In this document: positions 8,790 through 49,200 of the stretch, piece by piece | How the letters are laid out: every line of letters begins with the position of its first letter | How positions within the stretch are numbered: the first letter of the stretch is position 1 | NCBI GenBank assembly: GCA_002633005.1 | Contig: NMRA01000190.1 | Location: 372,001 to 436,000 of the forward strand | DNA from: Phoronis australis | Lineage: Eukaryota > Animalia > Phoronida | DNA: 64,000 nucleotides | Reading direction: 5' to 3' | Program-made: the position numbers and the translations under genes | The notes under the pieces: generated by a model | Told to the model about the DNA's origin: nothing | The model's database searches: none | The model's input: only the letters and a program-made list of their open reading frames with translations

Positions 8790-10691
8790 TCACGATATGT
8801 CCATCGGCTCAAACAAGAACTTGATGTCTGCTTCCGTTAATTTGTTATTAATCACGTTTTCGTTCAAGATGTCCTTTGCCATTTCCAGCTTTTGCTTCTG
8901 CAACTCCTTAATTTGTTCCTCAATAGTGCCCGAACAAAGGAAGCTATGAATGAACACATCCTTTGTTTGGCCCAGACGATGTATTCGATCACATGCCTGT
9001 TGTTCTACCGCAGGATTCCAGGACAGGTCAAGTAGAAAGAGTTGGTTAGCACCCATTAAGTTCAGTCCGACTCCACCAGCGCGTAATGATAACAGCATTA
9101 CAGATGGCCCAACTGAATTGCTATTAAAATTTTTAACAATACGCATCCTGTCGTTTACAGGTGTTTTGCCATCTAATCTACAAAATGAATGTCTTTCCTT
9201 GGTCAGGTGATATTGAAGGATGTCGAGAAGCTTTGTCCATTGAGAAACCACAATACTCTTTGTGGGTTGACTGCTTTCTCCATCATTGCGTAACCTACGC
9301 AACTCTGCCATGAGAACTTTTATTTTGGAACTTTCGTATTCTTTTTCAAATGCAGATATGTGGCTTGCATTCCTCGAGACTGCTTTGCATTGTGTTTCAC
9401 TCCCTATAGTCAAATCTTGCATACGATCTTCTAAAGATCTGTCTACGTCTTCATGTAGCTCGTCGTATTCAATCACCTCTTTCAATAGATTGGGATGAGT
9501 ACAACATTGTCGAAGACGTAGCAGTTTAACAAAGTGTGTTGTAAACCAGGCACGTTTGCTTGGTTGACAAACCCCCTGCATGACGCTGTTGTAAATTGCC
9601 TTCTCGGTATTAGAAAGCTTTAAATCATGCTCGATCCAGTGTCTTTTCGTTAACATTAGTTCGATTTGAGGGTCACTCTTCGTCCTCCTGAGCACGAGAA
9701 GTTTTGCAAAAGTCTTTAAAAATGTGTGATTTTCGCAGCATTCCTTCATGAAACTGTTACTTATATCAGGCAAGTGCATCAGATAGATCAGCAAAGAAAC
9801 TAAATCAGACTCATAATTTTGAATGGGAGTACCTGTCAGGGCCCAACGATACCTAGCCTTTAATTCAAAAACATTTCCGGCTGTGGCCGTCTTCGGATTC
9901 CTTATGGTGTGTGCTTCATCCAGAATTACTCGATCCCAATCAACTCTTTGTAGGAAAGAATCGCGAGTTCTAAGAATTCCGTAAGTTGTCAACACCAATT
10001 CATTTTCAGTAGGGGTCGACTGCTTTCGTCTTGGTCCATGATAAATGACAACTCTTATTTCGTGTAATTCACTATGTTCAGCAACTTCATTCTCCCATTG
10101 GTGGATGATCGATGCCGGAACAACAACAAGAGTAGGTCCGCAGCCTTTCCCATTGTGTTTTTGATGAAGCAGCAGCGCTATGGCAGTAACTGTCTTACCA
10201 AGTCCCATGTCGTCAGCTAAAATTCCTCCTGGAGGATTCTGTTCCTCTCGCCAAGCCATCCACTTGAGAGCACTAATCTGGTGAGGCCATAGACGAGATT
10301 TTAATCCCTGAAGACGATCTGGTATGGTCATCGAATCCGCACATGATCGTCGCTCAAGTTGAGCAAGGAACGACCTTTCAAGCTCTGCTTTTAACAGGAT
10401 TGGTGAGGGAGGATGTTGGGTTGAAAAGTCCCCAGGACCGATATGACCCGGGAGTGTCGGGGTGAAGAGGTCAGTCTTTACGTCGTAATGAGGAGTCTCT
10501 GTCGATGAGACAGCGTGCCGGGGCGAGGAATTCACACCAAAGCCTCTCAAACATCTGGTCCCTTCCAACTCTTTTAGCTTTCGTTCAAAAAACTTACGCG
10601 TAGTGTCGGTTATCACTGCATCAATACCGTGGCCTCGAAGCCTAAGTCTCAAGTCTCCATCACGGGGATTAGGCCCACGTTTCGGCGGCAT
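8790..10691 (-). CDS. Intronless TTF2/Lodestar-like SNF2-family ATPase with an N-terminal LEM-like domain (633 aa)
   Basis: Single ORF with all SF2 motifs: WMAWREEQNPPGGILADDMGLGKT, VVVPASIIHQWENE, VILDEAH, WALTGTPIQN, LLRLRQCCTHP, KSIVVSQWT, LLSLRAGGVGLNL and WNPAVEQQACDRIHRLGQ. It has a TTF2-type C-terminus (KLTEADIKFLF) and no RING insert. The N-terminus DGDLRLRLRGHGIDAVITDTTRKFFERKLKELE resembles a LEM motif. Confidence 0.93.
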   Translation of the reverse strand: MPPKRGPNPRDGDLRLRLRGHGIDAVITDTTRKFFERKLKELEGTRCLRGFGVNSSPRHAVSSTETPHYDVKTDLFTPTLPGHIGPGDFSTQHPPSPILLKAELERSFLAQLERRSCADSMTIPDRLQGLKSRLWPHQISALKWMAWREEQNPPGGILADDMGLGKTVTAIALLLHQKHNGKGCGPTLVVVPASIIHQWENEVAEHSELHEIRVVIYHGPRRKQSTPTENELVLTTYGILRTRDSFLQRVDWDRVILDEAHTIRNPKTATAGNVFELKARYRWALTGTPIQNYESDLVSLLIYLMHLPDISNSFMKECCENHTFLKTFAKLLVLRRTKSDPQIELMLTKRHWIEHDLKLSNTEKAIYNSVMQGVCQPSKRAWFTTHFVKLLRLRQCCTHPNLLKEVIEYDELHEDVDRSLEDRMQDLTIGSETQCKAVSRNASHISAFEKEYESSKIKVLMAELRRLRNDGESSQPTKSIVVSQWTKLLDILQYHLTKERHSFCRLDGKTPVNDRMRIVKNFNSNSVGPSVMLLSLRAGGVGLNLMGANQLFLLDLSWNPAVEQQACDRIHRLGQTKDVFIHSFLCSGTIEEQIKELQKQKLEMAKDILNENVINNKLTEADIKFLFEPMDIS

Positions 10692-10925
10692 ATTTTGATC
10701 AGGCTGACAGGAATTTTACAGTTGCTGTGTCAAATCAGCATCCCGAGACATTTGGAAGTAAAAATACAAAATATTTCCGATAAGATTTCTAAGAAAAGTG
10801 GTTGCGTTTAGTAACGCTAGGACCTAGATGAAATCTAGCGAAAGTCACGTGTTCTCATTTACGACAATATCTCACATAATCTCGCGAACTCCTGCTTTTA
10901 GCGAGGTCCTTGCGTTACTGAACGG

Positions 10926-14912: not shown

Positions 14913-15666
14913 TTACCTGTTAGCGTTATGTTTCGCCTCGTTTTACCTTCCGCTAACAACTTGCTGTGAATCATATGAGCCTCAGTTTGTGTTAGCCACT
15001 CGCTAACACTGTGCAACTCCCTATTTGCTGATTGGTTGCACGCTTTGTGGTTTTATCAGATCCGTGCGTGGTTTGATTCCCGGGTTGGGTAATCTCGGCA
15101 ATTACTAACTACAATACTTCCCATTGGTTTCTTATCTCCATGTATTTGAAGGGAATGGTTGTGCACCCCAGTCATGGAATAAGAGCTTTTCAACTCGTCA
15201 AAAATACATATTTATTATTACACTTAAAATTGTCACTTAAAAAAGCGCTTACTTTCTTTAGCAATCCTTTTTGGTTCTATGCATATCCTTCATGAAACCT
15301 GTGTTTGGGAATTAAGATGACTTAAGCGAAGAATTCCAACTCCACTTTCTTCTTTGCTGTTAACTTTTTCACCGCACGCAATAACCACCAAATGATGTCA
15401 CAAGTTAGGTCACAACAAGAGACTGTGGAGCATGAGACCTGGCGGCTGACACTTGCAAAAAGGAGCATGGGAGGATATCCAAAGGAACTCGAAAGATGTC
15501 TGTCGGACTTTTTATTTGTGAACTGGCGTGATTTCCTTAAAATGGCACCAGGCAATGGAAACTCAAGTGAACCTCCACAGATTTTCATGAATATGTTCAA
15601 ATTATGTAATTGTTGACTAAATTGTCTCCAAAGTCATGGTATGTTTTAATTATAACTCAATGCATA

Positions 15667-15754
15667 TAAATGCATGCATCATTCGATGTTATTCGCTGTA
15701 TTTCAAGATATAAATGCATGCATCATTCGATGTTATTCGCTGTATTTCAAGATA
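15667..15754. repeat. ~43-bp perfect tandem duplication
   Basis: ATAAATGCATGCATCATTCGATGTTATTCGCTGTATTTCAAGAT occurs twice. Confidence 0.85.
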
Positions 15755-16549
15755 AGTAATTTTTTATTGGGATATTATGATATCCATGCGTAACCAAGCA
15801 GGAACAGTTTGCCAAAATAAAGGAAACCCTGTGTAGGGAAAGGGTTGCGAAAGTTCAGGCCCTTACAAGTGCGCATGAAATAAACAAGATAATAGATCCC
15901 TGATGTGAAAAATCGAACTAAGACTGCCAGTGCACCCACATTTGCCTGATCGGCATTTTGTTTAGTCAAACAGAAAGTTGTGACTGTCTCGCGTGCTTTA
16001 TTGCCACTTAGTTTCCCCTCTTTGGTCCAGTGGCCCTCGCAGGTGCACCACATAGGGTAAAATCAGATGATCAGCATGTGACTTATAATCAAAGCCTTCC
16101 CCTTTTTGCAGAGCGATTCCTACCTCTGTTCATTTGATTTCTATACTATATTCAGTGCGTCTGTGGCAACTTCGGGGTGACCTGGGATTTTGACCTTGTT
16201 GCCAAACAAAATCTGCAGTCGCATTGGTAATCTGGAGGTCGCCAAAACGAGTCCTTTCTTCGCTATTTTAGGCCGACCCACGGTTGTTAGGCTCGGTACT
16301 TAATACAAAAATTTTATCAAAAGTGACATGTATCTTTCACTTCAGTCAGTAAGCTACTTGTGTATGACTGAGCTTCAAAACACAAGATGATGCTGGGGAA
16401 ACACCATATCCTTTGCTCACCTTAGCGGGCTTAATTGAACGGCTGAGGTGAACAAGGGCTCTATAGTCACTCTAATGTCACCATCTTGATGAAGCCTTTT
16501 TGCATTAACCCTCGTATCCTATTGAAGTGTAGCTGCTGTTTTTTTCCAG

Positions 16550-19500
16550 CTCGTGGTCTGATCCACCGCTGCCCAAGCTGTATGCAGAAACAGAGACCTT
16601 CCTTGGTGATATAGGTGTGGAATTCATCGAAGTCGGAATAAACAGGTGGGCTTTTGCCTTAGCTTAAAAGTACTAGTCAGTGAACAGCTACTAACTAGCA
16701 CAAGATCTCTGATACTACTAGTTAAAATCTTTGAAAGAAAACCATGGTTGGTTACCATTGTCAGCCATCCTTGATGTGGAGAAGATCTGGGCAATGTTCC
16801 GTAGACACGAGAACATCGTGAAAACACAAGATCACATAGTAGTATTTAGAAAGTCATTTATGGAAGCCCTTAGCTCACTGTCTCCTAGAAAAATCACTAA
16901 GCCTCACTGTTTGCTTGCTTGCTTGCTCTAAGCAATGTGTAAGACGACTCTTCGGCATTACTGCAAAGCATTACTATTGACTACCTGAAGCAGTGGTAGG
17001 ATGGGACAGGGCTGTTCCCCTCTCACTCAAAGAAATTACCTTCAGGAGGCTCAGGCATCTTTCTCCTCCAATGAATGTGGGTCCTGTAATGTCAATAAAT
17101 GATTATTTTTATTTTAAATATTTAATTTATAGTCATTGCTGAAACCCCCACCCCCCAGAAAGTTGGGCTTAAGCTTGATTAGTGTGATAGTCTGATGGTG
17201 CATGCATACCGCTGTTTTCACTTTAATCTTTCCTTGTTCTCCACTCATAACATTGACCACTGTGACACAATAATGATGTTTCAGGGTGAAGCACGACCAC
17301 AAAGAACCATCCATTTTCCACCAGCTTAGCTTCAGTGAGACCTCTAGCAGTACAAGCGTGGCTGGCTCTGAAGTGAGCGATGAAACTTACATCGACGCTG
17401 AAATTGATCTGGAGTCATCCAGGTTTAGTCTGGACACTGATCACGAATACCTGTCGTCGTCGCTGCTCAGCAGTTTTGGAGAGACGAGTAGCTTTTCAGG
17501 TGAGCTTGTAATAATTACCAAATCTGCCCTAGCCTTAAGTGCCCTATGTGTGTATATATACATACTTAGGTATGGGGGATATGGTTGTTCCTTGTTGAGG
17601 CGGTGATGATTATAAGGTTGGATGCTGTTGGCACAGAAAACCCCAGTGGTGCAATGGACATATATGCTGCTGATTGTCTCTGATCCCTGTACTTCTTATT
17701 GTGTCTTGTTCTAGAGTAACAGGATGGGTACCCCAGCCTAGTGTGACAAGCACTGGTGTTAGCAATGTTCTTAAATTGATCTGGCGTATTTTTCAATCGT
17801 GGCTTTAAGGGATTGCGTGTCTTCCATACTCCATCCACCTCTATGATGTGAGATACCCCAGTTGTACTTGTTCTGCAACTGAGCGCGAAGCACCCCGCAT
17901 ATTCCGTGATTGATGTTTAGTTTGGTCTCGGACATAACAGGTGCAAGAGGAAACAAGCAAGTCATAACTACCATTGATTTCTGTAGATCACTGGCTTTAA
18001 TACTTGTTTACAAAAAGTATGTGTAATGCAATTATTCATTGTTAGCTATAGGTTCGTATAGAGAACATGTTTCCATTCATATCACTGTTGTGACCATTCT
18101 TTTGTGTTTTTGCCTTCAGACCACGTCAGCTTTACTGGATTGACGTGGGGTGACGTAGACCTACAACTGTCAGGTGACACCTGTGTAGACGTAAGCAGTC
18201 ATGACACGTCGTCAGAGAAAGTACCTAGTCCCACAAGTTCTCCAGCTCCAAGCCGGGAGGGAGCGTTACCTGTAGACTTCATAGATGACAATGCTCCGTG
18301 GTAGGTGGCAGCATTGTAGTCAGAAAGATGGTCATGTTCTAGTGCTGAGCGTTTAGCTTTCTCATCAAATCTGGTTATAGGAATTGTGTCCGAACTGAAC
18401 TGTAGTTGTTATTAAGTGACGTGGAGATCAGGCAGAAAGTTTTCGGGTCACCGATTCAATTGCGTGCCGTGATAAGGTACTTTGTAAATGTAGAATTGTT
18501 GGCGACAGCGGTAGAACACTCTCAGGGAGACAGTATTTCTCCCTAAAAGTCAGCACAAGTATTCTCAGTAAGGAAACTGTCAAAAAAACGACTTCTGATT
18601 TATCTAACTGCAGTTGTAAAGTGTTGTTCCTTTCTCAGAAAATGAGAAATGATTCCTAGCAATGAGAAGAACTGACAAGTCGTCATTGCTTCAAGCCACG
18701 CCCATTTTGTTGCGCATCACAACTGGTTACAGTGAAGTTCTTATATTTGGGACACGATATGGTGGACAGGGGAAATTTCATTATGTCATATTTCTCAACA
18801 AAATTACTTGCGTAGCTATTACCAAATAACATTTGTTAAAATTTCAGGCATTTGCAACAATGTGGTAAGCCTCTGAAAAATAGAAATATGGCAATTTTAG
18901 CAATTATTTTTGTCCTAAATTGATGAATTTTTACTGTAGTTTCAGTCACCAATGGAGTAAGGCCATCTGTAGAGTTCTAGTCGCGTTATTAAAACCAGCT
19001 GCAGTTGAAACCCAGAAAAATAATGCCGTGAAGTTGTTTTGGAATAGCAAATTTATATCTGTGAAGAAAGTTGTTGTTTTTAACGCTTTGCATGTTGATA
19101 GTGGCTTTTACTGTGTCCATTTCTCAACTACATCTTTTGTGAGTGGTTCTTTTTCTCCGATCTAACTGCATTACATTGAACCTACTTTATAATGTTTGCT
19201 GCCTTATTGCATTCCATTCCACAAGTCCTTAAGGCAGTTAGACTTGTTGAAATTTGATTTAGCTTCGTTCAACTTCTGGTGCAATGAAGGTTTTAGAAAG
19301 CTCCCAGGATGGTTTGTTTGAACGCGGTTTGATTGGAAATTTGTGTTCTCTGAAAAATAAGGCCATTTGTTAAATGTGCTGCTGTTGATGAGGAAAGAAG
19401 TTGGTGTGGGAGAATAGAATTATGGTTCGTGAGAATTAGCTGCAGTACTGAAGAAAGGAAATGTGTTAATGAGAAAATAATGTTGTTAATGAGAATGTTG

Positions 19501-22500
19501 GTGTGAATCTTTATTATTGTATATACGAGAAGTGTGTTATCCAGCACCAGAAGTAGACATAGTGCTGTGTATTCTGTCAGCATTGTGTTTGTATATGGTG
19601 CTAGAGTATTCTATTGACAGTCACTAATCAGCCATGCTTTCAGATTTAGTCTGAAGGCATGCTATTGTCTGTCATGACACTATTTCTTAGCTACATAAGC
19701 AATGTTTCTATAACATCTGTTGTACTTGGGTATTTATTCTGTAGTTCCCCCTTATACTACAATGTGCACTTAAAACCAAAATAACTCCTTCAAAGTTACT
19801 ACCAAAATGTCCAAATGTTAATTTAATGCACTGTCCATGATTCAAATAAAAATTGATTGCTGCGCATACAATGTCCACTGGTAATTTGACCTGCCAGCTA
19901 TCATACAGAGGCTAGATTGGAGGGTCCTTTTCTATGGTCATGAAGTTGTGATGTCCGTTTCAGGAGCAGTATGACGTACAGCGAGCAATTGTCGACAGTT
20001 GAGAAATTAACAAGTCTTGTGAGTACGGATATGGATCTTCGTGACCAGTTGGAGGTCATTAAAATAATCAACAAAGATGCAGCCTTGTCACCAACAGACA
20101 CGGAGTTTGTTATTGGTAAGGCCTTGAGTTTTCTTTTAAGTTTCATTTAGAATATAGGTTTCATTTAGAACATAGGGTTTTTGGAAATATGTCGTCAAAT
20201 CGGACTTTTATCAGAGTCATTGACAAAGATATGGCGGTACGTTGTCACTCTTAGACGCAGAGTTTGTTGTTGGCTGGGGCTTGCAGCACTGTGTTAAAAG
20301 AGATTTCTGGTATTTCTTGGGATTATGTTGATCCACTCTTGTAGTCAAATTAAATATAGATACTGGCAGAATGCTTATTTACATTTTCAAAATCAAAGTG
20401 CAAGTTAGTACATTAGTGAGGTTGTTTTTATGTGGGGTCCAGTGGGTTGGTTGTCATCATCCGAATCCAATTCTGAAAGTGATTGAAATTAGCGTGAATC
20501 CAATCAAGTGTAGTGCTGTTGTCTGAGACTGTTAACATTTTGCTCGGTTTTCAAAGGTACACTGAATCTAGTTTTAGCCTATATATGACTAGACCACTTA
20601 GACTTTTGTAACACAATGATGCTTAGTCAATTTTAAAAACTCTTAACCAGTATAAACTCTTACACATTGGCTGACATGACTTAGTGCTTTGGACGAATTT
20701 GTCAATGGCTTTTGGGTTATGATCACTATCTTCTCTGTGACACGAGAAAGAAGTGTTTTAAGTGAATTGTGCTTGTATGTCTTTGGGGAAAGTCTTCAAA
20801 TGGTTAGTGAAGTGACCAGGACAAGTTTTATGAATTTCCTTACTAACATCGGGAGCATGTTAGACGAGGCAACCTCTTGACTTTGTGTTATGCTCTTTCA
20901 TTGTGTTCTGGTCTATTGTGTATTGCAGACCTGGCCTATCTAAGTGACGAAAAAATCCGACAGGTTCGAGAATATATCAAAAAGCACAAATCAACGACTA
21001 GCTCATCATCGTCCGCCACTGGTTTGAGTCAGCAGAAAAAAGTATGCAAAGTACGTTTGTTTTCAGGTTCTTGATCTCATTGAATTTATTTTCAATATTT
21101 CTGATGAATTTATATCACAAAGGGAGGCTTGTTCCCTCTTAAACAGAGTGTTTGCTCGAAAACCAGTTTTCTCTAGTAGTACTGAAAAGACGGGCATCAA
21201 ATTGGGTCTCAAAATCTGGGACCCTTTTGTGTGACTATTGCCAAATGTTGAGTTTTTCATGTTTCTCATTTGTGAGGTTTTGATGTTCTTAGAATATTTT
21301 GAAAATTGCCAGTTTACATAGCAGGGTCGCGTTGTTAATTTGGCAGCTGGTCACACGGGGCCGGGGACTTCTTGCCTTTTAGTTACTGAGGTCACATTGT
21401 CACGTTGTACAAAATGCGTACTGATAATCTCCTGTTCATGACAGTCTCTATTGGGAAACCAGAATTCAAGCCAAAATTGAATTTTCGTGATTCTGAAGAT
21501 TGAGAAATGGGTGATTTTGGCATTCTTTTTGTAAATCACTTATCTTGTTTTGGTTTTTCTATCAACTGAGTGAAAATAGAATTGGCAGTTGATAAAATTG
21601 TCAAAAATAGCTGCTGGCGCAACTTTTCCATCTATTCTAATAAAGTGTAACATCTAGTGTGAATGATCATTTGTCGTTCATTGTAGTTCTTGAGTTTGGG
21701 ATAGCCTGTTTCCTGTATCTAAATTTGGTTCGTGACCTAATAATACATATTTCACTGTACCATGCTGGAGAATTTTACCACTTCCAACTGATCATGGAAA
21801 ACCCGGACAAAAAATGAATTTCAGGCATGAAAAATCTAGAACAATATGAAAATGTGTTGAAACTTAATTAGTTAAAAAAGTCATTTTGTGAGTCTTATTA
21901 AAACACGTCTTGTTACCATTACATATTGTTTCATGACAGACCATCTGCCATTGGTTAGGGCACCCCGCATATTCCGTGACTGATGTTCAGTTTGGTCTCG
22001 GACATAACAGGTGCAAGAGGAAACAAGCAAGTCATAACTACCATTGATTTCTGTAGATCACTGGCTTTAATACTTGCTTACAAAAAAATTGCATTTCAGT
22101 GTTCTCAACAGATATTGGTTCGTAAAATATCCATTTTCACGTTTGGGGATGTTTGTGCATAAAGCATGATAGGAATTCATACACTGAACAGACGTCGATC
22201 CTCAATAAATGTCCTCAAATGCTTAAGAAACAAGAGACTGAAATAACACATCATTTTCTTGATCAAAACACAACCTAAAACACAGTGGTGTGTCAGTACA
22301 TGAACGCCTCCTTAAGTGTTTTTGGTGAGACTGTAGGTCTTGCAGTATTCTGTAACCTTGTTACTTGTCTTAGTTGTGTCTATGCTCACTGATTATGCTT
22401 AAGGAACAAAGTGAAATGCTCGACAGTTTATGTAAGTTATACTGTAAATGAACGTCAATGTCAAAAGCTCTCTTGTTTCTTTCAGACTGCAGGTTATCAA

Positions 22501-23338
22501 AGCCGCTTGTAACATTTTTCCGAAACTTTAAAGCCTCTTATATGAAGTTAGTAGTTGAGCTTGCCATTGGGACAAATAGCATTTTTCTTGATTCGTTATG
22601 CCCTTCTTTATGCCTCTCATGTGTCAGTAATATTCATGCTCTTTCAAGAACAACAACTGTAATTTTCAAATATTTCGCACTTAATATGGCGAACTAGTGA
22701 AATTTTATTTTGTTAAATTTCGCAACAAAAAATAACTTTAAGAAAACTTTAGTCAGTTGTTAGCTTTGTTTATAGTGGACAAATGTTATAAAAAAATTCA
22801 GTGAAATTTCCAATATTTCCACCTAAGTAACCAGTCATATTATATTTAAACGAAGGTTTACCATGACATTATGCTCAGAATCATTAGATGCCCATCTCAG
22901 TTGATATATGACTCACCAGAGGGACAATAAGCATTGTTGTGTTGTGTTGTGTTGTATCGAGACTCCAATCTGTATTAGATCTTGTGCTTATCAAAGATAC
23001 ATATTAAAAATTTTCAGAATCATTAGACCGCGCAATTTGTAATTTATGATAATCAAAGAAACAACGGACATTTTTTGAAGATCGTTATTAATAGGGTAGT
23101 TGTCTGATATTTGTGTGCATGGAAGGATAATACATTAAAATTATGTTACCTTGATGTTCTTCAGAAACAGGAGAGGAAGACTTACCAGAAGGCTGTAAAG
23201 CAACGACAACGTAAGGAATACCGACAAATGATGAAGGAGCGGCGGAGTGGATTGTTCAAACGGGAAGAGGTACTGGCTCTGTCAAGAGTGGTATCAGAGC
23301 CAGACGACAATTACAGTGACGTAGACATACTAACCTAG
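16550..23338 (+). CDS. FAM199X: FAM199X (CXorf39) homolog, spliced; start exon unresolved
   Basis: In-frame exons 16550-16645, 17285-17499, 18120-18300, 19964-20115, 20929-21050 and 23165-23338. They encode PWSSMTYSEQ...STDMDLRDQLEVIKII...[29 protein letters not shown] and KERRSGLFKREEVLAL...DVDILT*, matching the FAM199X conserved blocks. Confidence 0.9.
17890..18015 (+). ncRNA. Intronic H/ACA box snoRNA, copy 1 (predicted guide for 18S pseudouridine at the human U105 equivalent)
   Basis: Hairpin GCACC...GGTGC, H box AGAGGA, hairpin AAGCAAGT...ACTTGTTT, then ACA (18010-18012) plus 3 nt. The 3' pocket CATAACT/TTTAAT is complementary to 18S AUUAAA-UC-AGUUAUG. Confidence 0.85.
21960..22085 (+). 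ncRNA. Intronic H/ACA box snoRNA, copy 2 (paralog of 17890-18015)
   Basis: Near-identical to copy 1, differing at about three C/T positions; at least two of these are G-U versus G-C swaps in stems. Similarity stops at the predicted RNA ends. Confidence 0.85.
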
Positions 23339-23719
23339 CTGTGGCTACACAGTGTCATTGTTATGTAGTAGTGATATGTCATACCTTGGAGGTTAATTTA
23401 TTCACTAGCTATGCAAAGCTGCATTGCTTGTGTTGAATGGTGAAATTGGTGCGCAACATCGTGTTGTATGTTTTTGTAATGGAGATTGCATAATCTTATC
23501 GCAATGTTTTTACGCTCTTGGTGAGTTGTTTTATTTTAAAACATTTGGCAATGCTGGCCTTATTGTTTTGCGTAAAAGAATCATGTGAGTGGGTGTGTGT
23601 GTTTGTGCAATTTCGACAGCAAAGAATGCAGCTTACTAGCTAATTAATGTATGCCAAGTCTCTTGATAATTACAGTATTTCTACTTTTACTTGTGATCCG
23701 TGGTCTGTACATGCTTACA

Positions 23720-24285
23720 GTGTTACATTGGGTGCACACCCATACAATATGAGGAATGTGTCACTTGCTAACTAGTTCATGGTGTTACATTGGGTGCACA
23801 CCCATCCAATATGAGGAATCTGTCACTTGCTAACTAGTTCATGGTGTTACATTGGGTGCACACACATCCAATATGAGGAATCTGTCACTTGCTATTAACT
23901 AGTTCATGGTGTTACATTGGGTGCACACCTATCCAATAGGAGGAATCTGTCACTTGCTAACTAGTTCATGGTGTTACATTGGGTGCACACCCATCCAATA
24001 TGAGGAATCTGTCACTTGCTAACTAGTTCATGGTGTTACATTGGGTGCACACCTATCCAATAGGAGGAATCTGTCACTTGCTATTAACTAGTTCATGGTG
24101 TTACATTGGGTGCACACCGATCCAATATGAGGAATCTGTCACTTGCTAACTAGTTCATGGTGTTACATTGGGTGCACACCCATCCAATATGAGGAATCTG
24201 TCACTTGCTAACTAGTTCATGGTGTTACATTGGGTGCACACCTATCCAATAGGAGGAATCTGTCACTTGCTAACTAGTTCATGGT
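23720..24285. repeat. 62/65-bp minisatellite, about 9 copies, downstream of the FAM199X stop codon
   Basis: Unit GGTGTTACATTGGGTGCACACCCATCCAATATGAGGAATCTGTCACTTGCTAACTAGTTCAT; two copies carry a 3-bp insertion. Confidence 0.95.
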
Positions 24286-27200
24286 TTTTCAATAACTATG
24301 CACTTGAACCTTGAGTTGCAATCTGTCCATCACAACGAAAAAGTCAAAGCAATCTGCCATCATGACAGAGAAGTAACTCCAACTCACAGAAGCTCATTTA
24401 GTCTGTCTTTTCAAACCTCAGTTCCAAAATACAATGAGATTAACAACCTCAAGTAGGGCTCAATGAACACCCTGCCTTGTACTGATATTTTGTATCCATA
24501 GCTGCACTTATATTGTTGGGGATGTCGAAGATATGGTGATATATCTATATGGAAATAAACAATCATTGTAGAATTAGCAGAATATTTGTGGCCTAAGGGT
24601 GTCCTGAGTTTCACACAGATCGAATGTTGTTGATTTGCCTGTAACTGAAGCCTTTCCTACAATTCATGGGATTTGGCCGCATGAGGAGGAACTAGGCAAA
24701 TGTTGATTATTGTTGGATATGACCAATCTTACTCCTCAGTCATCCTTTATGCTGGTGTCTAAATTGGAAAACGGCTTCCCTTAAGTCACAGCCATGGTAT
24801 GAGAAATAGGCTCAGCAAATATAACGATCACTGGAATACCAGGATGCTCGTTTGGATTTTGGTTTGAATTGTTGTTATTCGCTGTCAGTTCACTGCGCTC
24901 GTCTTAGCATGAAACTGTTCAACGGGAATTTTGAGTGCTGGGGTAGTTATGCATATAGCTGTGCTCCTTTCTCAATTTTTTTGTAGTATGGCGATGCTTC
25001 GACTGCTTTAAGCCTAAACTGTGGTTCTATCAGTGATGTTCCCTGAAAAAAATGTTATTATTGACTTTTGATCTTGGTTATAATTTTGTACTTTTAAACG
25101 AACTTGTCTGGTTACTAAATATTTTAGGAAGGCTTGGTGATTTTTTAATTGTGTCTTTTCAATCATTGGAACGAATGCTCAACTTTTGCCCATTAAGCAG
25201 TTCATGTGGAGTAAACATGCTCCTGCAGTTCTTTACAAAATCTCTTAAAAATCATTGAAATTTTGTTTCTTAGATTGAAGTTAAGGCGAGAATTGTCTGG
25301 TAGGTTCAACTTTTGATGAGAAGTGTCTACAGTTTTTTGGAAGCTATGTACTGTCAACATTTTCACATCGAGTAATGATGTCAAATTTAGTTGATCGAAT
25401 GAAATTTCTGTTAAAGTCTTAATTATTCAACAAGGCATTCATATATGTGATGTTTCTGTTCAGTTGTTCTGCATTTGAGTAGTTTGAATTTCTGTCTCAA
25501 CATCTGCCTACTGTACGAATTGTTCATAATTTTATACTTTACTTCTCGACTTAGTACTTTCCGTGAACAGTAAATGAGGAAGGGTTTCATTGGATGTGAG
25601 GATATTGGTAGTGATCGCATAGGTAACACTTTTGTACTATGTGAATATGTTACGGACATCGTCTACAATACATGAATACAATTTGAAAACATTGCTGTTG
25701 GTTATGAGTGGTCCAGTTAGTAGTTGATCTGGGGTGAAGTCACTAACACAAACTTCACTTGGCAGTATCCTTGGCGATGTCCTGTCATAACTTTGTGAGC
25801 TTGTTCGCTTATGACTATAGCTGCATTGAATGCGAACATCCCCAGGTCTGCACCAATTTTATATGCTCGGGGTTAATTGTAATTTGCATAAGCTAGTCTC
25901 GTAAAAAGGAAGTGATTTCTAAATTTTATTTTACCACATGCAGTACCTACCTCCGAAGCAGTTCAAGGTTTTTTTAATGGGTCAAGTTCTAGGGGTTCAC
26001 ACAATTGTTATGTTGATATTTGTACCCGACTCCTGGCGGATGCTAACTTAACCTTGTTGCTGGATTTGGTTTTGTGTGCTGTAGAAACTTATGATTTAGG
26101 CCAATATTTAATCCGTCTCAACTGAAATGATTTCACAGCCTTCAAATTAGGACAGTTACCGCAATCAGGATTGGTTTAACCTTATGGTTCTCTTTATGCT
26201 GGGAATATGCTTTCAAGCAGTATTGGAACTGTTGCTGCTTTCCAAGAATTCGTCTCATCGGAGCTCTAAACAAGTTCAGGCTGGTTTAAGAATGGGAAAT
26301 GCCCTATTAAAACATTTTTATTAACAGAAAGCAGTTTGTGACACCATCAAGTAAACAAATGTAAAAGGGGTTTTGGTAGTGTTCATTCATTATTGGTTAT
26401 AAACTTTTGTGATTGTGCCAGAGTTGACTAGCCACTTTATTTAAAAACTAGCTTGAGTGAGTTCTATGGGTTTTGAGCAGATCAAAAATGGAATGATGCA
26501 GGTGAAATTGTTTTCCTTTTTGGGCAGCAAGGTGCAAGTTTCAAAATCTGTGGAGGTGCTGACCTTTATCAACTAATATGCAGTTTTGGCCTGATGGGTA
26601 CACAGCCTGATCATACATCATTTCTAGTTTAAAAAGTAAATTAGAAATAACAAACGATGCTATCATTACAACGACCTCTTTATTATAAAAATATATTTTG
26701 ATTCTCAAGCGTCTTATACTATAACAAATACTTAACAAAACAACTTTGAATTTCACAACCTATACAGTTACAGACAACATAAACAAAGGATTTGGCCATT
26801 CAAGCACAGTCCCAATTTTTAAACATACCTGACATTAACAAAAGACCTGGCAACCATTTTAGGAGCAATCTGACAATTCCATTAGCTGATTAAATTGTAG
26901 AGGCAGCAAATAACTTGCCAACTGTTAGAAACGGAGGTTCTGAAACACAAATCACTGCATCTTTACGAATGCAGAACCCGTGATGAACAAAATTTCAAGG
27001 GTATGCCTATCATATGATATCGACAACTAAAGGCGTTTTCCCACATCTTCAACAGGACAGGTTACCGAGAAATTATGGAATTTTTAGACGTTTCAGCAAA
27101 TGCCAGGACGTAAAACTACATTAAATAACTGGCAATCAGTTTGTGGCAAAATACTACTTGAAAATTGCGTATTCCCAGTACCAGAAGTTGATGTCATAGT

Positions 27201-27608: not shown

Positions 27609-30600
27609 CTAATCTTCATCTGATGAAACTGCTTCAAATACCTACAATGAAATTAAAAGGAGTGTTACTGTAATCATATCAACCACACAAAAAACATCAG
27701 TCAAACTCAGCATAAGCTAGAGATGACTACTGAAACTGATGTTGTTTCCTTCGAACCTACAATCAAAACATGTAAATCATGAAATTGGCTATATCGCTCT
27801 AACAGAAATTTTCCCCACAATTATAGCCATTCGCTTTCACCTTCAAAAGGATATTGAGAGATTGACATGACTCAGATAAATCTTACATTTTGGGCTTGGA
27901 GGAGGTAACTTATCCACATAGTGGCTTAAAATTTTGTAAAACATGGGTGTCCTTCATGCACAAAGTTCGGTGAAAGCAGTTCTTTGTGAACCCCGTCACA
28001 CAACTGTCCCAGTTGGACTGTGTAACGATCCCAGCTTATGGTCGCGGCTGAGAAGATAAGTGTTAAATTACATATATGGATTCTGAAGTCCAGCAATTTC
28101 TTGAGTAAACCTCTAACGGGAGTTTATTGCTATGTTTGAAGTGTTTTCTGTGTTTCCAAGAGCAGGGTCAATACCTTGACTTAACATCCAGGGTAACTTA
28201 ATATGTGCTACCCACAAATTAAAGCATTAACAAACATCTATCAGATCTAGCCCTATGTCAAAATCTTCACTTACTGAACAAGCCAGCACCAGAATTAAAA
28301 CAGCTGCTAGTGGTTTCTATCAAAGTTTGTCCCTTTGGCTGAGAGCAGGCTCACAGCAGCTTTAAAAAAGAAGTTTAATAAATATCCCTCTTGAAAAGCT
28401 ACAATATTGTGGCTTATTCACAAAGTGCTATTACTGTCACATAACATGGATACAGTGAGCCACTGAATTCAAACTGCAGTGAAAAACATCATCAACCTAA
28501 TTATGTGTCCCATCTCATTGTTTGATAATAGCAGAACAAGACTTGCAGCTCGCGATAGCGTGTCATCACTTACATCGAGCAGATTTTTTGGTCCAATGCT
28601 CAGCCTGGGCTCTTGAAAGACGTCTATTTCATTGTTGACAGGGGTCCTGACTACCTGCGGGGAAGGGGTGGAGGTCGTGGAGCCAGGGGAGAATCTGCCG
28701 TGAGAGAACGGAATCATTTAGCACAGACCAAAAGAATTCTCAAAAACTGAACATTGATTAGAAAAGCCACAAACACTGATTAAAATTCACAGAGACAAAG
28801 ATCATTTTACAAAGCACCACAATGGCCTTTAACTGCGGCTACTTACTCTTGAACTTTTTAAAAAAGATTTTTTTTCGAAAACTGACCGTGTATCTGCATG
28901 AGTCTGAATAAGACGGCTGAAAAATAAGTCTCTGCTAAAGTGTGTTGTAGGAAATGAAGAGTTATAATACATTATGCAATAACTACACGGCATGTTTAGC
29001 ACAAAAGCCAACATCAAGAAAACCTCATGGGATTAGTTTACACAAAATTTCACATTTAAACAAAACCCCTTCGTACTTAATACAAGAGAAAAACTAAAAA
29101 ATGCTTTCAAATCAACAAAAAGGAAAAAAAAGCAGGTTGATGTAACTTTGTCAGGTGTGCCAATCTATGTGATTACACACAATAACTTCAGCACAAGCTA
29201 TACCTGTCAGAGAATCTGAAGCCAGGTGATGCAGACCTTGACGGTGTTTGTGTGCGACAAACACGATTGCGTATGCCTCCTGGAGTGGTCTTGGCAATTC
29301 TTGCTGGAAGACTAAAACAAAAAGCAGCTCATGGATACATTCAAAGTGCTTAGGCTGTCCCTAAATAAATTTCAAGCTAATTTGATCAGACGTAAAATTC
29401 CATGACTAAGAAGTTTTTGAAATTTTTACTTTTTGACTTTTCCTGGTAAAACCAAATTTCAGACTTTTCCCAAAAAGCCCCAAAGTTATATGCCTTTTCC
29501 AGGTTGTACAAACCATGAATGGGTCCATGGCTTGATTTAGAAGTGCTCATAAACTGTGTTGCGCAATTGCATTTAAAGTGGAACTTGCACGCTAATTGAT
29601 TCCTTATCTGTGATTGCTTGGTCAAATTAGTTAGAAACACAACATATAGCGACGAAGCGAATATGAAGTAGGTTGAAAATTGCCAAATGTTTTTAAGAAC
29701 GAGTTTTGTGTCGAAACCGATTCGTCGTAAATCACTCAATTGTATCCAGTATCATGTCGTGGTGTTGGGAATAACACTGCATGACGCGATTTATGTGAGC
29801 CCCCAAGGTACGTCATTAATGCAAAGGTCACCTATTTGCAGAATTTATTGTTTTCACATTTACAAGTTGTCAATGAATACAACTGCACTTTGTTCAGCGT
29901 AGATTGTGTTAAAATAGCATTGCAGTTTAGTTCCTGCTGTACATTAGCATAGTTAGGAGCATGCAAATACTTCTTAAGCATTGACACACAATACTGCCGG
30001 ATATTTCCATAAACACACCCAGCCAAAACACGCCCAGTAAATGAGTGCAAGGAAATTTTCTACAAATACCATGGGAGCATATTTAGGAAAAGGCAGCACT
30101 ATGCAAATTGATGTTCTCCCGCAAAATACCTTTTGCTGAATATACACCTGTCTTATACATGGAAATCTCCAGTACATAAAATAGAAAAGGCAGCCAAATA
30201 TCACAATAACTACCAATTCTTTCAACATGTTTACTGTGATTCATTTTGCAGTATCCATCAGGTTGCCTTCTTAAACAGCTTAGATGAAGACAGTGAAAGT
30301 AAACAAAACCTAGAGGAAAACAGAAAAAAGGACACATATTCTCCTCCAATCTTTGCCAACCTAAGGTGTGACAAGGTTTGGTAAAATTGTTAAGCTAAAA
30401 CGTACACAGATACCGTAATGCTGGAAACTTACAAACATGGAAGGAGTTTGGTCCAAAGAACTGTTCCACCACCAAACAATAAGTGTCCAGCATCACTGAT
30501 CACTGTCCAGCATCACTGACCACTGTCCAGCATCACTGACCACTGAATCATCATTTGAGAAACAAGGTACTCCCTAATATGATTGCAAGCAGAAAGTCTA

Positions 30601-40420: not shown

Positions 40421-41019
40421 TAGACAGTGATCACCTTCTCTAGCTGGCCTAGTAGATACGGTGTCTATAGGAGCTTCATACGTCGGAAGCTTTTCGGCGA
40501 ATTATGCCTTACACTGCCAATGTCTCTGACTAAAACATCAAAGTCTCGTTGTTATATTATAACTTATAACTACTTTTGTGCATAGAGCCATAAAGGGACA
40601 CCTTAGGTCCTTAGGAGGCTTTCAACTCGACGAAATACTCCTGTTATCAAACTTTTTCTTCAAGCAACCCCTCATTCAGTTCTCAAAGTCGGTAACTTGC
40701 CATTTTTAACACTTCGTGCGGCAGGTGTTATGACGTCATATCCCCTAGCTTGCGCAGTGTAAATGGTGAGTTAATGATTTTGGGAACTGAACGAGGGACT
40801 GCTCAATGAAAAAGTTTGACAACGGAAGTATTTTGTGGAGTTGGGAGGAATTAAAAACATCCACTGAGCCTCCTAAGGTGTCCCTCTATGCGCTAAAAGG
40901 TATTTGTAACGTGACTTTGTTGTTTTAGTCAGTTTGAGGCATAATTCGCTGAAAAGCTTCTGACTTATAGGAGCTTCACTGTCTCTACTAGAGCAGCTAG
41001 AGACGGTGATCACTGTCTA
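40421..41019. mobile_element. ~600-bp foldback (palindromic) MITE between PKMYT1 and MFAP1
   Basis: TAGACAGTGATCACC...GGTGATCACTGTCTA. The arms pair imperfectly along their whole length, e.g. AAGCTTTTCGGCGAATTATGCCT / AGGCATAATTCGCTGAAAAGCTT and GGGACACCTTAGG / CCTAAGGTGTCCC. Confidence 0.85.
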
Positions 41020-43220: not shown

Positions 43221-46200
43221 ATGGCAGGAATAGTCAGTAAGGCACCTATCCAGTCCACAGCAGGTGCTATTCCTATGAAAAATGATAAAGGTAAGACTTT
43301 TTGTACATCCAGTTGAATTCCAGCCCAGTGTTGCAAATGACACTTTTATCAGTCAATCACTGATATACAATCTTGACCAGAGGGGACAAGGGTGTCTAAA
43401 AATGAATAGGAGTCTCTCTATAGTCATTCATTGGAGCAATACAATCACGACTGAGGAGGGGGGGGGGTGAATGTCCCTTGAACCCCTCTGTATGCATGGC
43501 ATAAGTTCATGCAACTTCTTGATCCAGCTACATGTACTTAAATTCTAGATCCAGTTGCATGTACATATAACAGCCATGTGAGTGACGTTGCCATTATTGA
43601 ACAATGCTTTCTACATCATGTAGATATGCAATTTATCAAAGGGATTAGTTTAATGCTTCTTAGTCCTTTTCATTTGTCTTGATTCCAGTGAATGCTTCTT
43701 GTACTCCAGAGCAGCTTTGCTTCACAAGAGGTATTTGCAGTCTGTGAATTTTGTGAGTTAGACAAAACTGGAGATTTATTTTAGAGACATTCAAGTGGCG
43801 CGTTTCATTAGCTAGATTTTACGATCAAGTCAGAAGTGGATGAGATTCATTTTGCTTTATAGACATAAAAAATTGTTTTTTGCAGGAGAGGTGTACATGC
43901 AAAAGGTCAAAGTAAGCCGATATGTTCCTGGTAAAAGGTAAAGTATTAGGTCTACTGAATAAGATGAATAGTTAAATTGAAAAACATAAGATGAAGCCAC
44001 CGACTTGATTTTCGAAAAAAAAAACAGAGACCAGAACCAGCTATGCTTTTTGGACTTACTGTATGTTACAAAATTGGCGTCAACTTGTATCTTACCTAGA
44101 TTAGAAGTGAGTTCTGGGTTTAGTAAGAATTGTCGAATCATTGTTTCTGAAAATTTGAAAGGTGGAATTCACCGGTCGTTATAAATTTCATTTACCGAAA
44201 GAAATCTGGGTATCAGTCGAATAGGACATAAGCGATTCTATGACCAAACGCAAGATGTAGTAACTGGTAATGACTAGCTTTTGCATTTGTTGTTTAATTT
44301 GAGGTGAGAAAGCTTGAAGAGGATTTGGGTAGCTCTTTTCTCAAACATGTTTCTACTCTCTCTGCAACTACTCACATGTGTTGTGACCTAGCAGTGCATT
44401 GATGATATACCAATGCAGAATGTCGCCTTTCTTGTGTTGCTTTCCCATCAGCAAAACTGTCCTATTGTGAATTCATTGTGACTGCCCTTTCCATTACTCC
44501 TCCTCAGTTGTGATGCAGGAGTTACCACTTGTTCTAAGGATTAAACACCTGATACGTTGATTCACACTCTTGACTCAATACATGTGTTGAATGCCATGAC
44601 TTCTAGTGATTACTTCCATCTCAGTGGTGTTGTGCAACTGCGCAGTTTAATCCACCTGTGTTGAGAGGAGTGGTGATGGCTGTTTAAGTCCAAGCATTGC
44701 GTTCCCTATTCACCAAAAGTCTGCAGAGCTGGGAAGTTGTGGTGTTGGTGGGAAAGCAACTCAAGAAAAATGCCCTATTGTTAATGTAAACAGTGCGTAG
44801 AGTGACCTTTCTGGAGAACAGTAATAACGTATGGCTTGTAAATGAGGTTAAAAGTTGACTAGTATGGCAACTATGGTGAATGAAGCCAATGAACGTAAAG
44901 TTAAGTCAACGAATTCAGATTTGGAAGAATCTGTTCATTTTTTAAAAAGTGCATGTTGTGCAAGAACACATTTTAGAATCAGAAACCTTCATCATCGCAT
45001 TTGTTGTTATTGTTTTGAGCCCCCATGTGCTGAGTAGTGAATTAATGCTTGGTTACTCGTTTGCTAGGCCTGACTACGCTCCGCAGGAGTCCAGTGATGA
45101 GGATGAGGACATGGAAGTGGAGTTTGGCAGGAAGAAGGCCCCACAAGTGGCGCTTCCTGTGGAGGAAACGGAAACTACACAGGTGGAAGACAGGCGTCTC
45201 CGGCGACTTCAGGAGCGGCCAAGGGAAGAGGAATCAGACAGGTTTATTTTTGTGTCTTCACTTGTTGGATCGTAAAATGGTCTGTAGTGCAGCAAAGTCA
45301 TCAAATTTAAGCTTTTGAATCAGGACCTTCTACCATAGATTTTTAATACCAGGATTTTCCATAGATAAGTCCACCTGATGAAACGCCCATAGGCATTTAT
45401 TCAGGAAATTATGCCAAATAAACACCCATGGGCACTTATTTGGTGTTACAACTTCTGGTATCAAGTGTCCAGATACTGGGCCGTTTATTCGCAAAATTTC
45501 TTTTTGAAAGCCCATTCCCAGTCAAATTTTTGCCACAAATTCAGTTTTGTGGAGCATTTATAATTTATAAAAACTAACAAGGTGTTGGTGAACTATGCAT
45601 TTATTAACACAAACATTTGAAAACATAGTTTTAAGTAAATAATCTCAAAGTCAACAAAACTATCAATTTCCCATATTCCGAATAAACGCCCGGGTGTTTA
45701 TTTGGTGTTACTAAAATGCCTGAAAACTTTCATTTTCCAAATACATGCCCATGGCCTTATATACGGAAAATCCCGGTATATTTTGTTGACTAAAAATATC
45801 GGACATTGTGGGCACATATCAACACTGTGTGATGCTGTAGTCATGTGTGATTGTAGACTAGCCCGACACAGACGTCATGTGGCTGAACCAGAGGTGCTGG
45901 GGAAGTCTGATGATGAGCAAATGGAGGAAGAAGAGGAAGAACTAGAGGTCAGGCGTAGGGTCGAGGCCAGCAGTGATGAAGAGGAGGGGGAGGAGCTAGA
46001 TGAAGAGGTGGGCTGTCAATCAATCATCTTGTCAGGGTGGAGTCACATGATAAGCACACTCTGTGGTCCCTTGTTGTTCATTTGGTAACTGAGCACATTT
46101 TAAACTATTGAGGGATTATGTGATAAAAGTTTTTATATGACTTTATATGAATGGTATGTTATTTAGATGTTTTGTTATTACTGAGCAATGATAAGTGAGG

Positions 46201-49200
46201 TTTTCCGTGAATGATGTTCAGACAGATATCGGACTTTGAGGCTGGTGATCATTTATCATCTGCCTGGTATGAATTCATGTCAATTAGAAGGGGGGTGTTT
46301 GCTAAATTATCGTGGCACATAGTTTATTTATATGAACTACGTATAAAGAGTGTCGTTGAATGTGAGTATGGTCTGTGGTCAATTTTACTTTTGTTGCTAT
46401 ATGATATTGTTATGAAAAGACAACATTATGTTCACAGTTGTGTGCTTGACTGGGCATACAACTTTAGTAAAAGGGGTGTCTATTATAGCCATATGTTTAC
46501 TTCCGCAGGAGATTGAGCGTCGGCGTAAGTTACTGCGTGAGCGAGCGCAGCAGCTGCAGAAACAGGAAGAGGTGATGGATTTGGAGGAGGAGAAGTCGGA
46601 AGGGGAGAGTGAAGAGGAATCTGAGTACGAGGAGTATTCAGACAGTGAAGAGGAGGAAACAGGGCCGCGGCTGAAGCCTGTGTTTGTTAGAAAGTGAGTT
46701 AATGTTGAGAGGGAGGGAGGGATTGTTTTGTGAGTGAGAGTGGGGAGTTGTGTGAAGAGTAGAAGGAGTGTACAGATAGTGGAACAGTAGGAAGGGGAAA
46801 CAGGGCTGCAGCTGAAGCCTGTGTTTGTTAGAAAGTGTGTTTGTGTTTAGAGGGAGGAGTGTTTGTTAGTGAGAGTGGGGAGGTGTGTCAGGAGTATGTG
46901 GAGTGTACGGGCAAAGTCTGTGTTTCTTAGTAAATGAGAGAGAAAACTAGCGGGTGCTTTTGCATGTTAGGCACTGGTTTAGTATGGTAAAGTGTGTTTC
47001 AGAGGCAGTGATGTTAGCATAAGATTGAAACTGTCGTGATATGCTGTGATTTTGTACAGTAGTATTTTGCGAATTGTAGAAAAGACCGTATTACGATTCA
47101 GGAACGAGAAAGGAATGAGCGTAAAGAACGAGAATTGGAGGTTGAGGCTAAGAAACTTGCGGAGGAAAGGAAACTCCAAGCCAGACGGGTAAACTTTTTG
47201 GAATGTCCAACAGAGAGGAAAACTGCTTGGAATTTTTTTAAAAATTATACTGAGGCCCTCAAATGTCATTAGGTGGTGCTAGTCAGTCGTAATTGCTATA
47301 TGTGTATAAGTGGACTTTTGATGCTTATTCAATGAATTCGTCCACATGCTGATTGTGACTTAAATGAAGTGTTTTAAAAGAGTTCAAATTTGCTTCGTAA
47401 AATCATGCACCTCAGGTGCCCATGGGGCCAGAAAATGTGGGGCCCAGGATCATCAGAAAACAAAGAAACGCAGTTGGAATAAAAACTTTTCTGGTGTTAA
47501 AGACTGGAGTGTGTCTGGAAGATTTTCAGCAATGGCCAATTTCCGGTATAGCGGTGACATGATAAAATACTTGTTATCGCTTGATGGCGATAGAGTTGTT
47601 AGTGGACTGTGCTCTACATTATTGTGGACTGTGCTCTACATTATTGTGGACTGTGCTTTACATTATTGTGTAAGGATGTAATGTTGTAGGTATTCTTAGA
47701 GTTATTTATAATTTTTTGTGCCATCAAAAAGCCACTGTTGTATGGTATATTCAACTGATTCACACAAAAATGTCCAATGTCTCAAAGTGTCGGTTAATGT
47801 AAGAGATTGTGTTTTTTGTCACAGTCACATCAGCCCACCTTGCACATTATTTGATGAAAGACGTTTTTGTGCTCTCAGAGTGCTTAAGACTTCCATGTCG
47901 TGTGTTTCGTTGATGACCTCACCTGCACTTTGAACTTTTGGCCCGTCGTAATGAAATGGTGCAGTTGTGGCCAAAACACATTTTAGTTTTAACTCTATGT
48001 AATACTATAGTAATGAAGGCACTCTCATGTTTTGAACTTCAGATGGTAGAGGATGTGGCAAGAAAAGAATTTGAAGACGAGAAAGTTGTGGCAGACGCGT
48101 GTGACCTGATAAATACAGACGACGAAAATGATGAAGAGGAGTATGAGGCATGGAAGTTACGTGAATTGAAGCGACTGAAGCGCGACCGTGAAGAGCGGGA
48201 ACAGTAAGTCAGAACTAGATTATCGACAGTATTAAATATTTTCTAAACATTCCGGAGCTGACCTGGGTAAAGCTCTGCTTTGAGTATCGCAAAAATTGGG
48301 ACGCACTCTCATGGTATTTCTGGACAACACCTTCAGAGCCCAGATCCGTGAGTAACTTAAGTGGTTGCAGCTTGCAGACATCAGAGAGTTGGACTTTGGG
48401 GAGAAGTACTCCTGCAGTTTCCACGGCTATTTTTCATTTCGCATTCTCTATTGATACACCGCTCATTAAGCTCACTACTTCTCAATGCATTATGAGGACG
48501 CTGCACTCGTGATTTATAGTATGCCCATGTTCTAAGTCCAGTTGCTGATTAAGCACCTCTAATTTCTCTTCTTCATTAAGATCAAGACTAAATCCAATTA
48601 AGAAGGTGTGTTTTGTGGAGAGCTGAGAAATTCTGTCGGGGGTCTTCAGAAGATTGGCTTGTGAAGAAGTAGACTCCAATCTGTGACCACACAGCTATGT
48701 ATCCATTACTTTAACCACTGATCACCTAGCACTGTCCCTCATTCTGTTGCTTTGTATCTCCCTTCACAAAGTAAATGAGTGTATTTGAGACAACTCTTTT
48801 GACAAACATGTCGAATGTTGCAGAATTGAGAAAGAGCGCCAGGATGTAGAGCGTCTACGCACATTGACGGAAGAAGAGAGGCGTGCCGACCTCAAGGCCA
48901 ACCCCAAAGTCATCACCAATAAGGCATCCAAGGGCAAATACAAGTTTCTTCAAAAGTACTACCACAGGGGCGCTTTCTTCATGGTAATAATAAAATGACA
49001 AATGTCAATTAGGCCAAGTCTCCTCTTGTGGAGTTTTGTTTTCATTGCAGTCTTCTCAGTTGGGGTTTTGTTGTAGTAGTCTAGAAACAAAACTAATAAA
49101 TGTGAAATTTTTAAATTGCTGTTAAATTTAGTACAGATGTTTCAAATGTGGGTTGATTAATATATGTTGTTGCTTTTGTTTAGATCACTTTATTCCTTAT

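Follow-up and report, generated by a model that had tools for sequence, protein, structure and literature searches.

The 64,000-nt stretch analysed here (the window: Phoronis australis, GenBank assembly GCA_002633005.1, contig NMRA01000190.1, positions 372,001 to 436,000 of the forward strand) contains a FAM199X gene, two introns of which each harbour one copy of a 126-nt element laid out like an H/ACA snoRNA (small nucleolar RNA). An initial annotation had proposed that these copies carry a guide pocket for position U105 of 18S rRNA and that FAM199X is their host. We followed up both proposals with RNA-seq reads, Pfam and Rfam searches, folding and target scans; positions below are those of the window.

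The part of FAM199X that could be seen runs on the plus strand from 16600 to 23338, its 5′ end not being defined. Splice joints in the RNA-seq data, together with the junction letters, gave one exon ending at 16645, four at 17285–17499, 18120–18300, 19964–20115 and 20929–21050, and a last one from 23165 to the stop at 23338, separated by five GT–AG introns (16646–17284, 17500–18119, 18301–19963, 20116–20928 and 21051–23164). The RNA data were three raw runs with the same species label (X2, X3 and X4, each read to ~18–19%) and one contig set; the libraries were of the 151-nt kind, which captures mature snoRNAs poorly. Reads from the exons derived from the plus strand.

Three of the five candidate pieces from the region matched Pfam; the FAM199X family, PF15814, was found on two exons (E = 1.7e-12 and 8.4e-11), a third exon falling below the cut-off. 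A search for homologues of the exons returned ten candidates, none of them significant. Together with the presence of both copies inside spliced introns, on the transcribed strand, the Pfam matches bear out FAM199X as the host gene.

Copy 1 occupies 17890–18015 (+) in intron 17500–18119, with 104 nt between its end and the 3′ splice site; copy 2 occupies 21960–22085 (+) in intron 21051–23164, its end lying 1079 nt before the 3′ splice site. Each is in sense orientation in a spliced intron of an RNA polymerase II host, and each folds as a hairpin, a hinge, a second hairpin and an ACA box followed by 3 nt, the coordinates and layout being as first described. The hinge contains an ANANNA box, AGAGGA, at 17946–17951 (22016–22021 in copy 2), which the SNORA50 model aligns with its own H box; the ACA is at 18010–18012 (22080–22082), 3 nt from the predicted 3′ end. 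From the fold and the target scans, the 5′ strand of the 5′ pocket was placed at 17895–17902 (21965–21972) and, from the fold, its 3′ strand at 17933–17939 (22003–22009). The 3′ pocket is made of CATAACT at 17963–17969 (22033–22039) and TTTAAT at 17996–18001 (22066–22071). Fold z-scores were −1.97 for copy 1 (4 of 200 shuffles as good) and −3.40 for copy 2 (none of 200).

The copies are identical at 123 of 126 positions (97.6%), the T/C differences being at 17910/21980, 17918/21988 and 18007/22077. Two of these oppose a G with a probability of at least 0.98 (U–G versus C–G) and the third is in a loop; no pair is broken, in keeping with the earlier claim that the differences are compatible with pairing. 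They lend the fold weak support, as a transition is tolerated at 38 of the 70 paired positions, the other 56 positions having no partner, and three changes are too few to be counted as covariation. The match between the copies extends from the first base of the first stem to 4 bases past the ACA, and the flanks could not be aligned above chance in 2000 shuffles (p = 0.13 for the 100 nt downstream and p = 0.99 for the 150 nt upstream). A motif common to both copies about 30 nt downstream was discarded as not significant (p = 0.13). A BLAST search of the 64-kb window revealed no third copy.

Target scans were run on animal-type rRNA as a proxy for that of the species, namely 8 genome-contig loci (6 of them confirmed as 18S by Rfam) and 32 metagenome loci. 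Rfam, applied to two of the eight long loci, recognized a full 18S–5.8S–28S unit (L034) and a full 18S plus 5.8S (L047), and an 18S search in the genomes behind the 18S fragments gained only bacterial 16S and repeats of one locus (L004). Three non-rRNA matches, five further loci without the motif and three repeats of L004 were excluded from the 38 loci used for counting. Among the sequences met was also a 3.6 kb contig from a viral collection, whose end (L001:3586–3604) resembles the 5′ part of animal 18S, with no match in Rfam.

In five of five long rDNA loci, the top site for the 3′ pocket was 18S position 105. TTTAAT pairs with the 6 nt before U105 and CATAACT with the 7 nt that follow U105 and its neighbouring nucleotide, all 13 pairs being of the Watson–Crick type. 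With all registers allowed, none of 1000 shuffles of the 6.4 kb rRNA reached 13 strict pairs, and one reached 12. Guide pairing requires a minimum of 8 pairs, counting both sides together (PMC6049503), a figure exceeded here, and the 14 nt from the start of TTTAAT to the ACA fall within the 14–16 nt box spacing. The assignment of this pocket to U105 was upheld, as was its location; its distance from the ACA is 14 nt, not the approximately 15 nt originally given.

According to the PMC6984369 supplement, 18S U105 is a highly conserved pseudouridine, guided by SNORA36, SNORA50 and SNORA76, and by SNORA24 in Xenopus. Table 2 of PMC2653536 assigns 18S-105 to ACA36/ACA50/ACA62 and to yeast snR44, and pseudouridine was measured at human U105 (PMC6776443). 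The SNORA36/SNORA50/snR44 group named at the outset is confirmed by the first two of these sources.

The copies share with SNORA50/ACA50 and SNORA76/ACA62 (RF00407, clan CL00034) the H/ACA layout and a 3′ pocket for U105. In the whole window, Rfam returned no match at the gathering score; at a relaxed threshold, the SNORA50 model aligned both 3′ pocket strands, the first stem, the H box and the ACA onto the copies, so that the Rfam check gave no family name but did recover the anatomy. The differences from SNORA50/76 lie in the score (18.3 bits versus a cut-off of 90), in the 5′ pocket, which leaves U34 unmatched (4 contiguous pairs, in both of two proxy 18S sequences), and in the host. The SNORA50-type chicken RNA GGgACA3, which guides 18S-34 and 18S-105 and is homologous to snR44, resides in CNOT1 (PMC2653536, Table 2), in contrast to FAM199X here.

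SNORA36/ACA36 is assigned to human 18S U105 (PMC6984369 supplement), as predicted for the copies, and its host is DKC1 from human to pufferfish, host switching being documented (PMC1687206). It differs from the copies in host and in its second target, U1244, for which they offer 3 pairs in both proxy 18S sequences, and no Rfam match was seen at E values up to 10. Yeast snR44, whose second target presumably lies in the large subunit, likewise gave no Rfam match, and no large-subunit target stood out in the 28S scan; it resembles the copies as a functional homologue for the 18S-105 site (PMC2653536). Xenopus SNORA24 carries, like the copies, a U105 pocket beside an unrelated second pocket in a non-orthologous snoRNA, SNORA50 and SNORA76 being missing there (PMC6984369 supplement), a case of antisense-element shuffling; its partner pocket and host are different and no sequence match was found. 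Judging from sequence, the copies would act like SNORA50, SNORA36 and snR44 at U105, yet they fail family membership on score, second pocket and host.

As for the reads, X2 showed a step at the 5′ end of copy 2 (depth 8.9–10.7, versus 1.1 just upstream), and reads past this copy continued downstream through the intron in X2 and X3. No letter differences were listed within the copy 2 reads. Neither antisense reads nor a read pile-up were seen on either copy in the RNA-seq runs. Dispersed-repeat fragments in the FAM199X introns (18706–18939, 21190–21700 and 22684–22917) collect reads from elsewhere in either orientation, reaching about 50x per strand in the bin 18706–18939, as compared with zero antisense reads for the copies.

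A third H/ACA-like RNA, missed by the initial annotation, likely resides in the same gene, at 19541–19682 (+) in intron 18301–19963, with an H box at 19603–19608 and an ACA at 19677–19679; its sequence is unrelated to that of the copies. We found it through intronic reads: the three 105-nt bins upstream of 19541 were empty in all runs, while depth from the predicted 5′ end was 6.1 in X2 and 4.3 in X3, with none in X4. This 142-nt RNA has a textbook H/ACA fold (z = −6.16, none of 200 shuffles as good), and five of five read variants keep the fold, two turning into G–U pairs and three being unpaired. In a mechanical H/ACA scan of 15000–23400, which yielded 18 candidates, it ranked first and copy 2 second, copy 1 being the next locus. 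Rfam gave it no name.

In 17 of 38 loci, a count that is partly circular, the 5′ pocket of the third RNA can form 6 + 6 pairs around 18S U132, at 14 nt from the H box; its score of 11.5, versus a shuffle mean of 10.8, is not significant alone. For the 3′ pocket there was no canonical target in the proxy rRNA (best score 11.5 versus a shuffle mean of 11.2). Amphibians have a lineage-specific pseudouridine at 18S-132 (PMC6984369 supplement), which may correspond to the U132 considered here. FAM199X is likely a three-snoRNA host in the lineage of Phoronis australis.

The best explanation for the duplicated elements, and in our judgement a highly probable one, is that they are intronic H/ACA snoRNA copies of FAM199X, predicted to guide pseudouridylation of 18S U105. 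What was observed comprises the anatomy, the location in spliced introns in sense orientation, and the 13 Watson–Crick pairs at canonical spacing with proxy 18S; the H/ACA identity first assigned to the copies stands on fold, boxes, position and U105 pocket. Several results weigh against this explanation. The pairing rests on proxy 18S rather than on the 18S of Phoronis australis, and the fit of 38 of 38 loci to U105 is circular, the loci having been fetched with the same motif. The SNORA50 alignment has an E value of 0.44. An orthologue search for covariation gave no match in metagenome contigs, a result of little weight as the pattern was strict (12 identical bases). Copy 1 had a depth of 0 in the bin 17770–18003 in 4/4 runs, at 88% likeness; sense reads over copy 2 were present in X2 and X3 and absent from X4 (depth about 4–11, at 105-nt resolution), and in X3 there was no step (4.3–5.6, versus 5.3 upstream). 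Sites where many molecules begin or end were reported in neither read mapping, the libraries being unsuited to a 126-nt RNA.

Could the copies be a short dispersed repeat (a short interspersed element, a miniature inverted-repeat transposable element or a snoRNA retroposon family) that merely resembles a guide? Retroposons derived from snoRNAs do exist (PMC1687206), and the sharp borders and the short run of A past the ACA (4 in copy 1, 6 in copy 2) may be a trace of RNA-templated insertion. We regard this as very improbable, however. The 4–6 A fall short of an A-rich tail with a target-site duplication of ~14 bp, or of terminal inverted repeats, and no target-site duplication abuts either copy, the longest common flank words (5 and 7 nt) lying away from the ends; on this point the check for a repeat origin suggested at the outset favours the snoRNA assignment. 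Moreover, the 64 kb hold two copies only, both in sense orientation within one gene, the two-strand read pile-up is absent from them, and a repeat would not be expected to match a known pseudouridine site with 13 pairs. A different possibility, rather unlikely in our view, is that copy 2 is functional and that copy 1 is either a silent duplicate of recent date or an insertion specific to one haplotype, the duplication itself being functionless. The reads agree with this, copy 1 being at zero depth in all runs and reads covering copy 2, like the third RNA, in two of the three raw runs, and so does the predicted folding energy: all three differences leave copy 1 less stable (−31.1 versus −35.9 kcal/mol). 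The divergence between the copies, 2.4%, is also below that between window and reads for the third RNA (5 per 142 nt), and the duplication is possibly too recent for selection to be visible. On the other hand, every box and pocket of copy 1 is intact, with no pair broken by the differences, and its intron is short (620 nt) and readless across the bins 17536–18003, in libraries that capture mature snoRNAs poorly. A silent copy 1 would in any case be compatible with U105 guidance by copy 2.

The remaining alternative concerns the 5′ pocket, which in the fold is a clean internal loop 13–15 nt from the H box. When tried against the equivalents of U34, U36, U1244 and U1248 (sites whose human numbering we assume), it formed 4, 6, 3 and 3 pairs, respectively, and these candidates were rejected. 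Across all of the proxy rRNA, it reached at best a strict score of 7 (shuffle median, 8) and a relaxed score of 10.5 (shuffle mean, 10.4); for these chance tests we used one full 28S (L034), from an animal at an unknown distance from Phoronis australis. Position 908 of that 28S was discarded as well (3 + 8 pairs with a mismatch, in 5 of 8 long loci; within chance). The best conserved candidate was 18S U60, which in 32 of 38 loci has 8 or more contiguous pairs and in 29 shows 5 + 4 pairs with one G–U; this just meets the pairing minimum, is within chance, and its register demands the opening of two upper-stem pairs. Inspection by eye of the terminal loops for a motif like the CAB box, whose consensus we assumed, revealed none, and an informal visual comparison of the pocket with snRNA sequences turned up no convincing match. 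In the available part of the Xenopus supplement there is no 18S-U59 or U60 site, the matches being U592 and U609 (PMC6984369). The paper itself (PMC6984369) reports frequent taxon-specific targets for orphan domains, each domain evolving on its own. It is a tentative but arguable idea that the pocket actively guides a site beyond the known set of U105 partners, be it 18S U60, a species-specific rRNA position or a spliceosomal small nuclear RNA; its clean loop, the U60 pairing and the frequency of taxon-specific targets speak for it, and the chance-level scores, the strained U60 register, the Xenopus supplement and the terminal loops against it. Most likely, the 5′ pocket either guides a lineage-specific site missing from the proxy rRNAs or is idle. 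The statement that it has no identifiable target holds for the proxy rRNA, where none scored above chance; the pocket is thus unassigned rather than an established orphan.

Returning to the copies as U105 guides, a plausible sequence of events begins with splicing of the FAM199X pre-mRNA, which the RNA-seq joints attest. From established H/ACA biology, the snoRNAs would then be trimmed from the introns to ~126 nt and loaded with dyskerin, NOP10, NHP2 and GAR1. The 3′ pocket would clamp 18S on both sides of U105, as the pairing with proxies predicts, and present U105 to dyskerin for catalysis.

Cis-duplication is the likely origin of the pair: within one host gene, a recent event, either duplication or gene conversion, that took in the snoRNA and nothing else. 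With less divergence between the copies than between alleles of the third RNA, and no flank in common, the duplication or last homogenization was likely recent and restricted to the RNA itself. In chicken, copying in cis into an adjacent intron is the common route (PMC2653536). No target-site duplication points to retroposition, and the duplication routes are indistinguishable here.

Sense reads in the introns extended from snoRNA to next exon at 19541–19963 and 21960–23164 (+) in X2 and X3, and not or hardly in X4. Such reads may represent RNAs protected at the 5′ end by a snoRNP (small nucleolar ribonucleoprotein) and extended at the 3′ end, varying by sample. The profile at 19541 and, in X2, at 21960 is similar to that of the 3′ snoRT and cSPA RNAs described in PMC9394076, which are truncated at or near a snoRNA and extend through the remaining intron into downstream exons. 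Unlike those, the putative RNAs here are deduced from about ten reads per site; the EIF4A1 fragment of the same paper, moreover, starts at the end of the preceding exon rather than, as here, at the snoRNA. A broader proposal, that FAM199X carries three guides aimed at the 18S 5′ domain (U105, a lineage-specific U132 and an undescribed U60) and produces sample-dependent long RNAs, capped by H/ACA snoRNPs and running into downstream exons, as an invertebrate counterpart of cSPA/3′ snoRT RNAs, strikes us as speculative and improbable.

We found no report of FAM199X as a snoRNA host in the literature searched, which omits most subscription papers, bioRxiv supplements and snoRNA databases; together with snoRNAs, FAM199X occurred in gene lists only, and its alias CXorf39 gave nothing. 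Both names are absent from the available part of PMC2653536, and FAM199X from that of PMC6984369 and its supplement. A search for catalogues of invertebrate guides brought up no relevant paper among the 12 of 1431 matches listed. The unusual host is unsurprising, given how well host switching and pocket shuffling of snoRNAs are documented. With cis-duplication also among the documented behaviours of snoRNAs, the genes are of an ordinary kind, in a host that we did not find reported.

The copies are examples of H/ACA guides in invertebrates that lack annotation and escape Rfam at its cut-offs. They add a further case of a U105 pocket that has another partner pocket next to it and another host, which supports independent shuffling of pockets and hosts. 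Judging by the habits of host genes, they would also be a hint that expression of FAM199X, whose function is little known, resembles in this lineage that of a growth or housekeeping gene. The general understanding of snoRNAs is unchanged by the finding.

Two C/D-like elements were noted as well. A weak candidate at 17602–17684 (+) (GTGATGA ... CTGA) lies upstream of copy 1 in the same intron, with no reads and no long rRNA antisense element. Another, at 46183–46275 (+), is in an intron of a gene that we take to be MFAP1-like, Pfam having no match on the single exon tried. A C-box-like motif is present, and 15 nt complementary to L034 18S 1318–1332 (one G–U) are followed by a D′-like motif; matches of such length also arise by chance in the window. 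Rfam was weak (snoZ30, E = 7.5) and there was no fold signal (z = −0.02), while a 32-nt part matches the upper 5′ stem of the copies at 81% identity (E = 0.002).

Elsewhere in the window, an SNF2 helicase frame of 641 uninterrupted codons at 8790–10715 (−), which we assume to be TTF2-like, has a LEM-like N-terminus (Pfam: SNF2, E = 2.6e-63; Helicase_C, E = 1.2e-18; LEM, 23.9 bits versus a cut-off of 24), and its best solved relatives are SMARCA5 and RAD5. It is possibly a retrocopy or a mobile-element gene, because it is intronless in an intron-rich region. Just past the 3′ end of FAM199X there is a tandem array with a unit of ~62 nt (23720–24291). A 600-nt inverted-repeat element occupies 40421–41019, and 380-nt repeats at 29573–29947 and 57426–57789 form an inverted pair with 83% identity.

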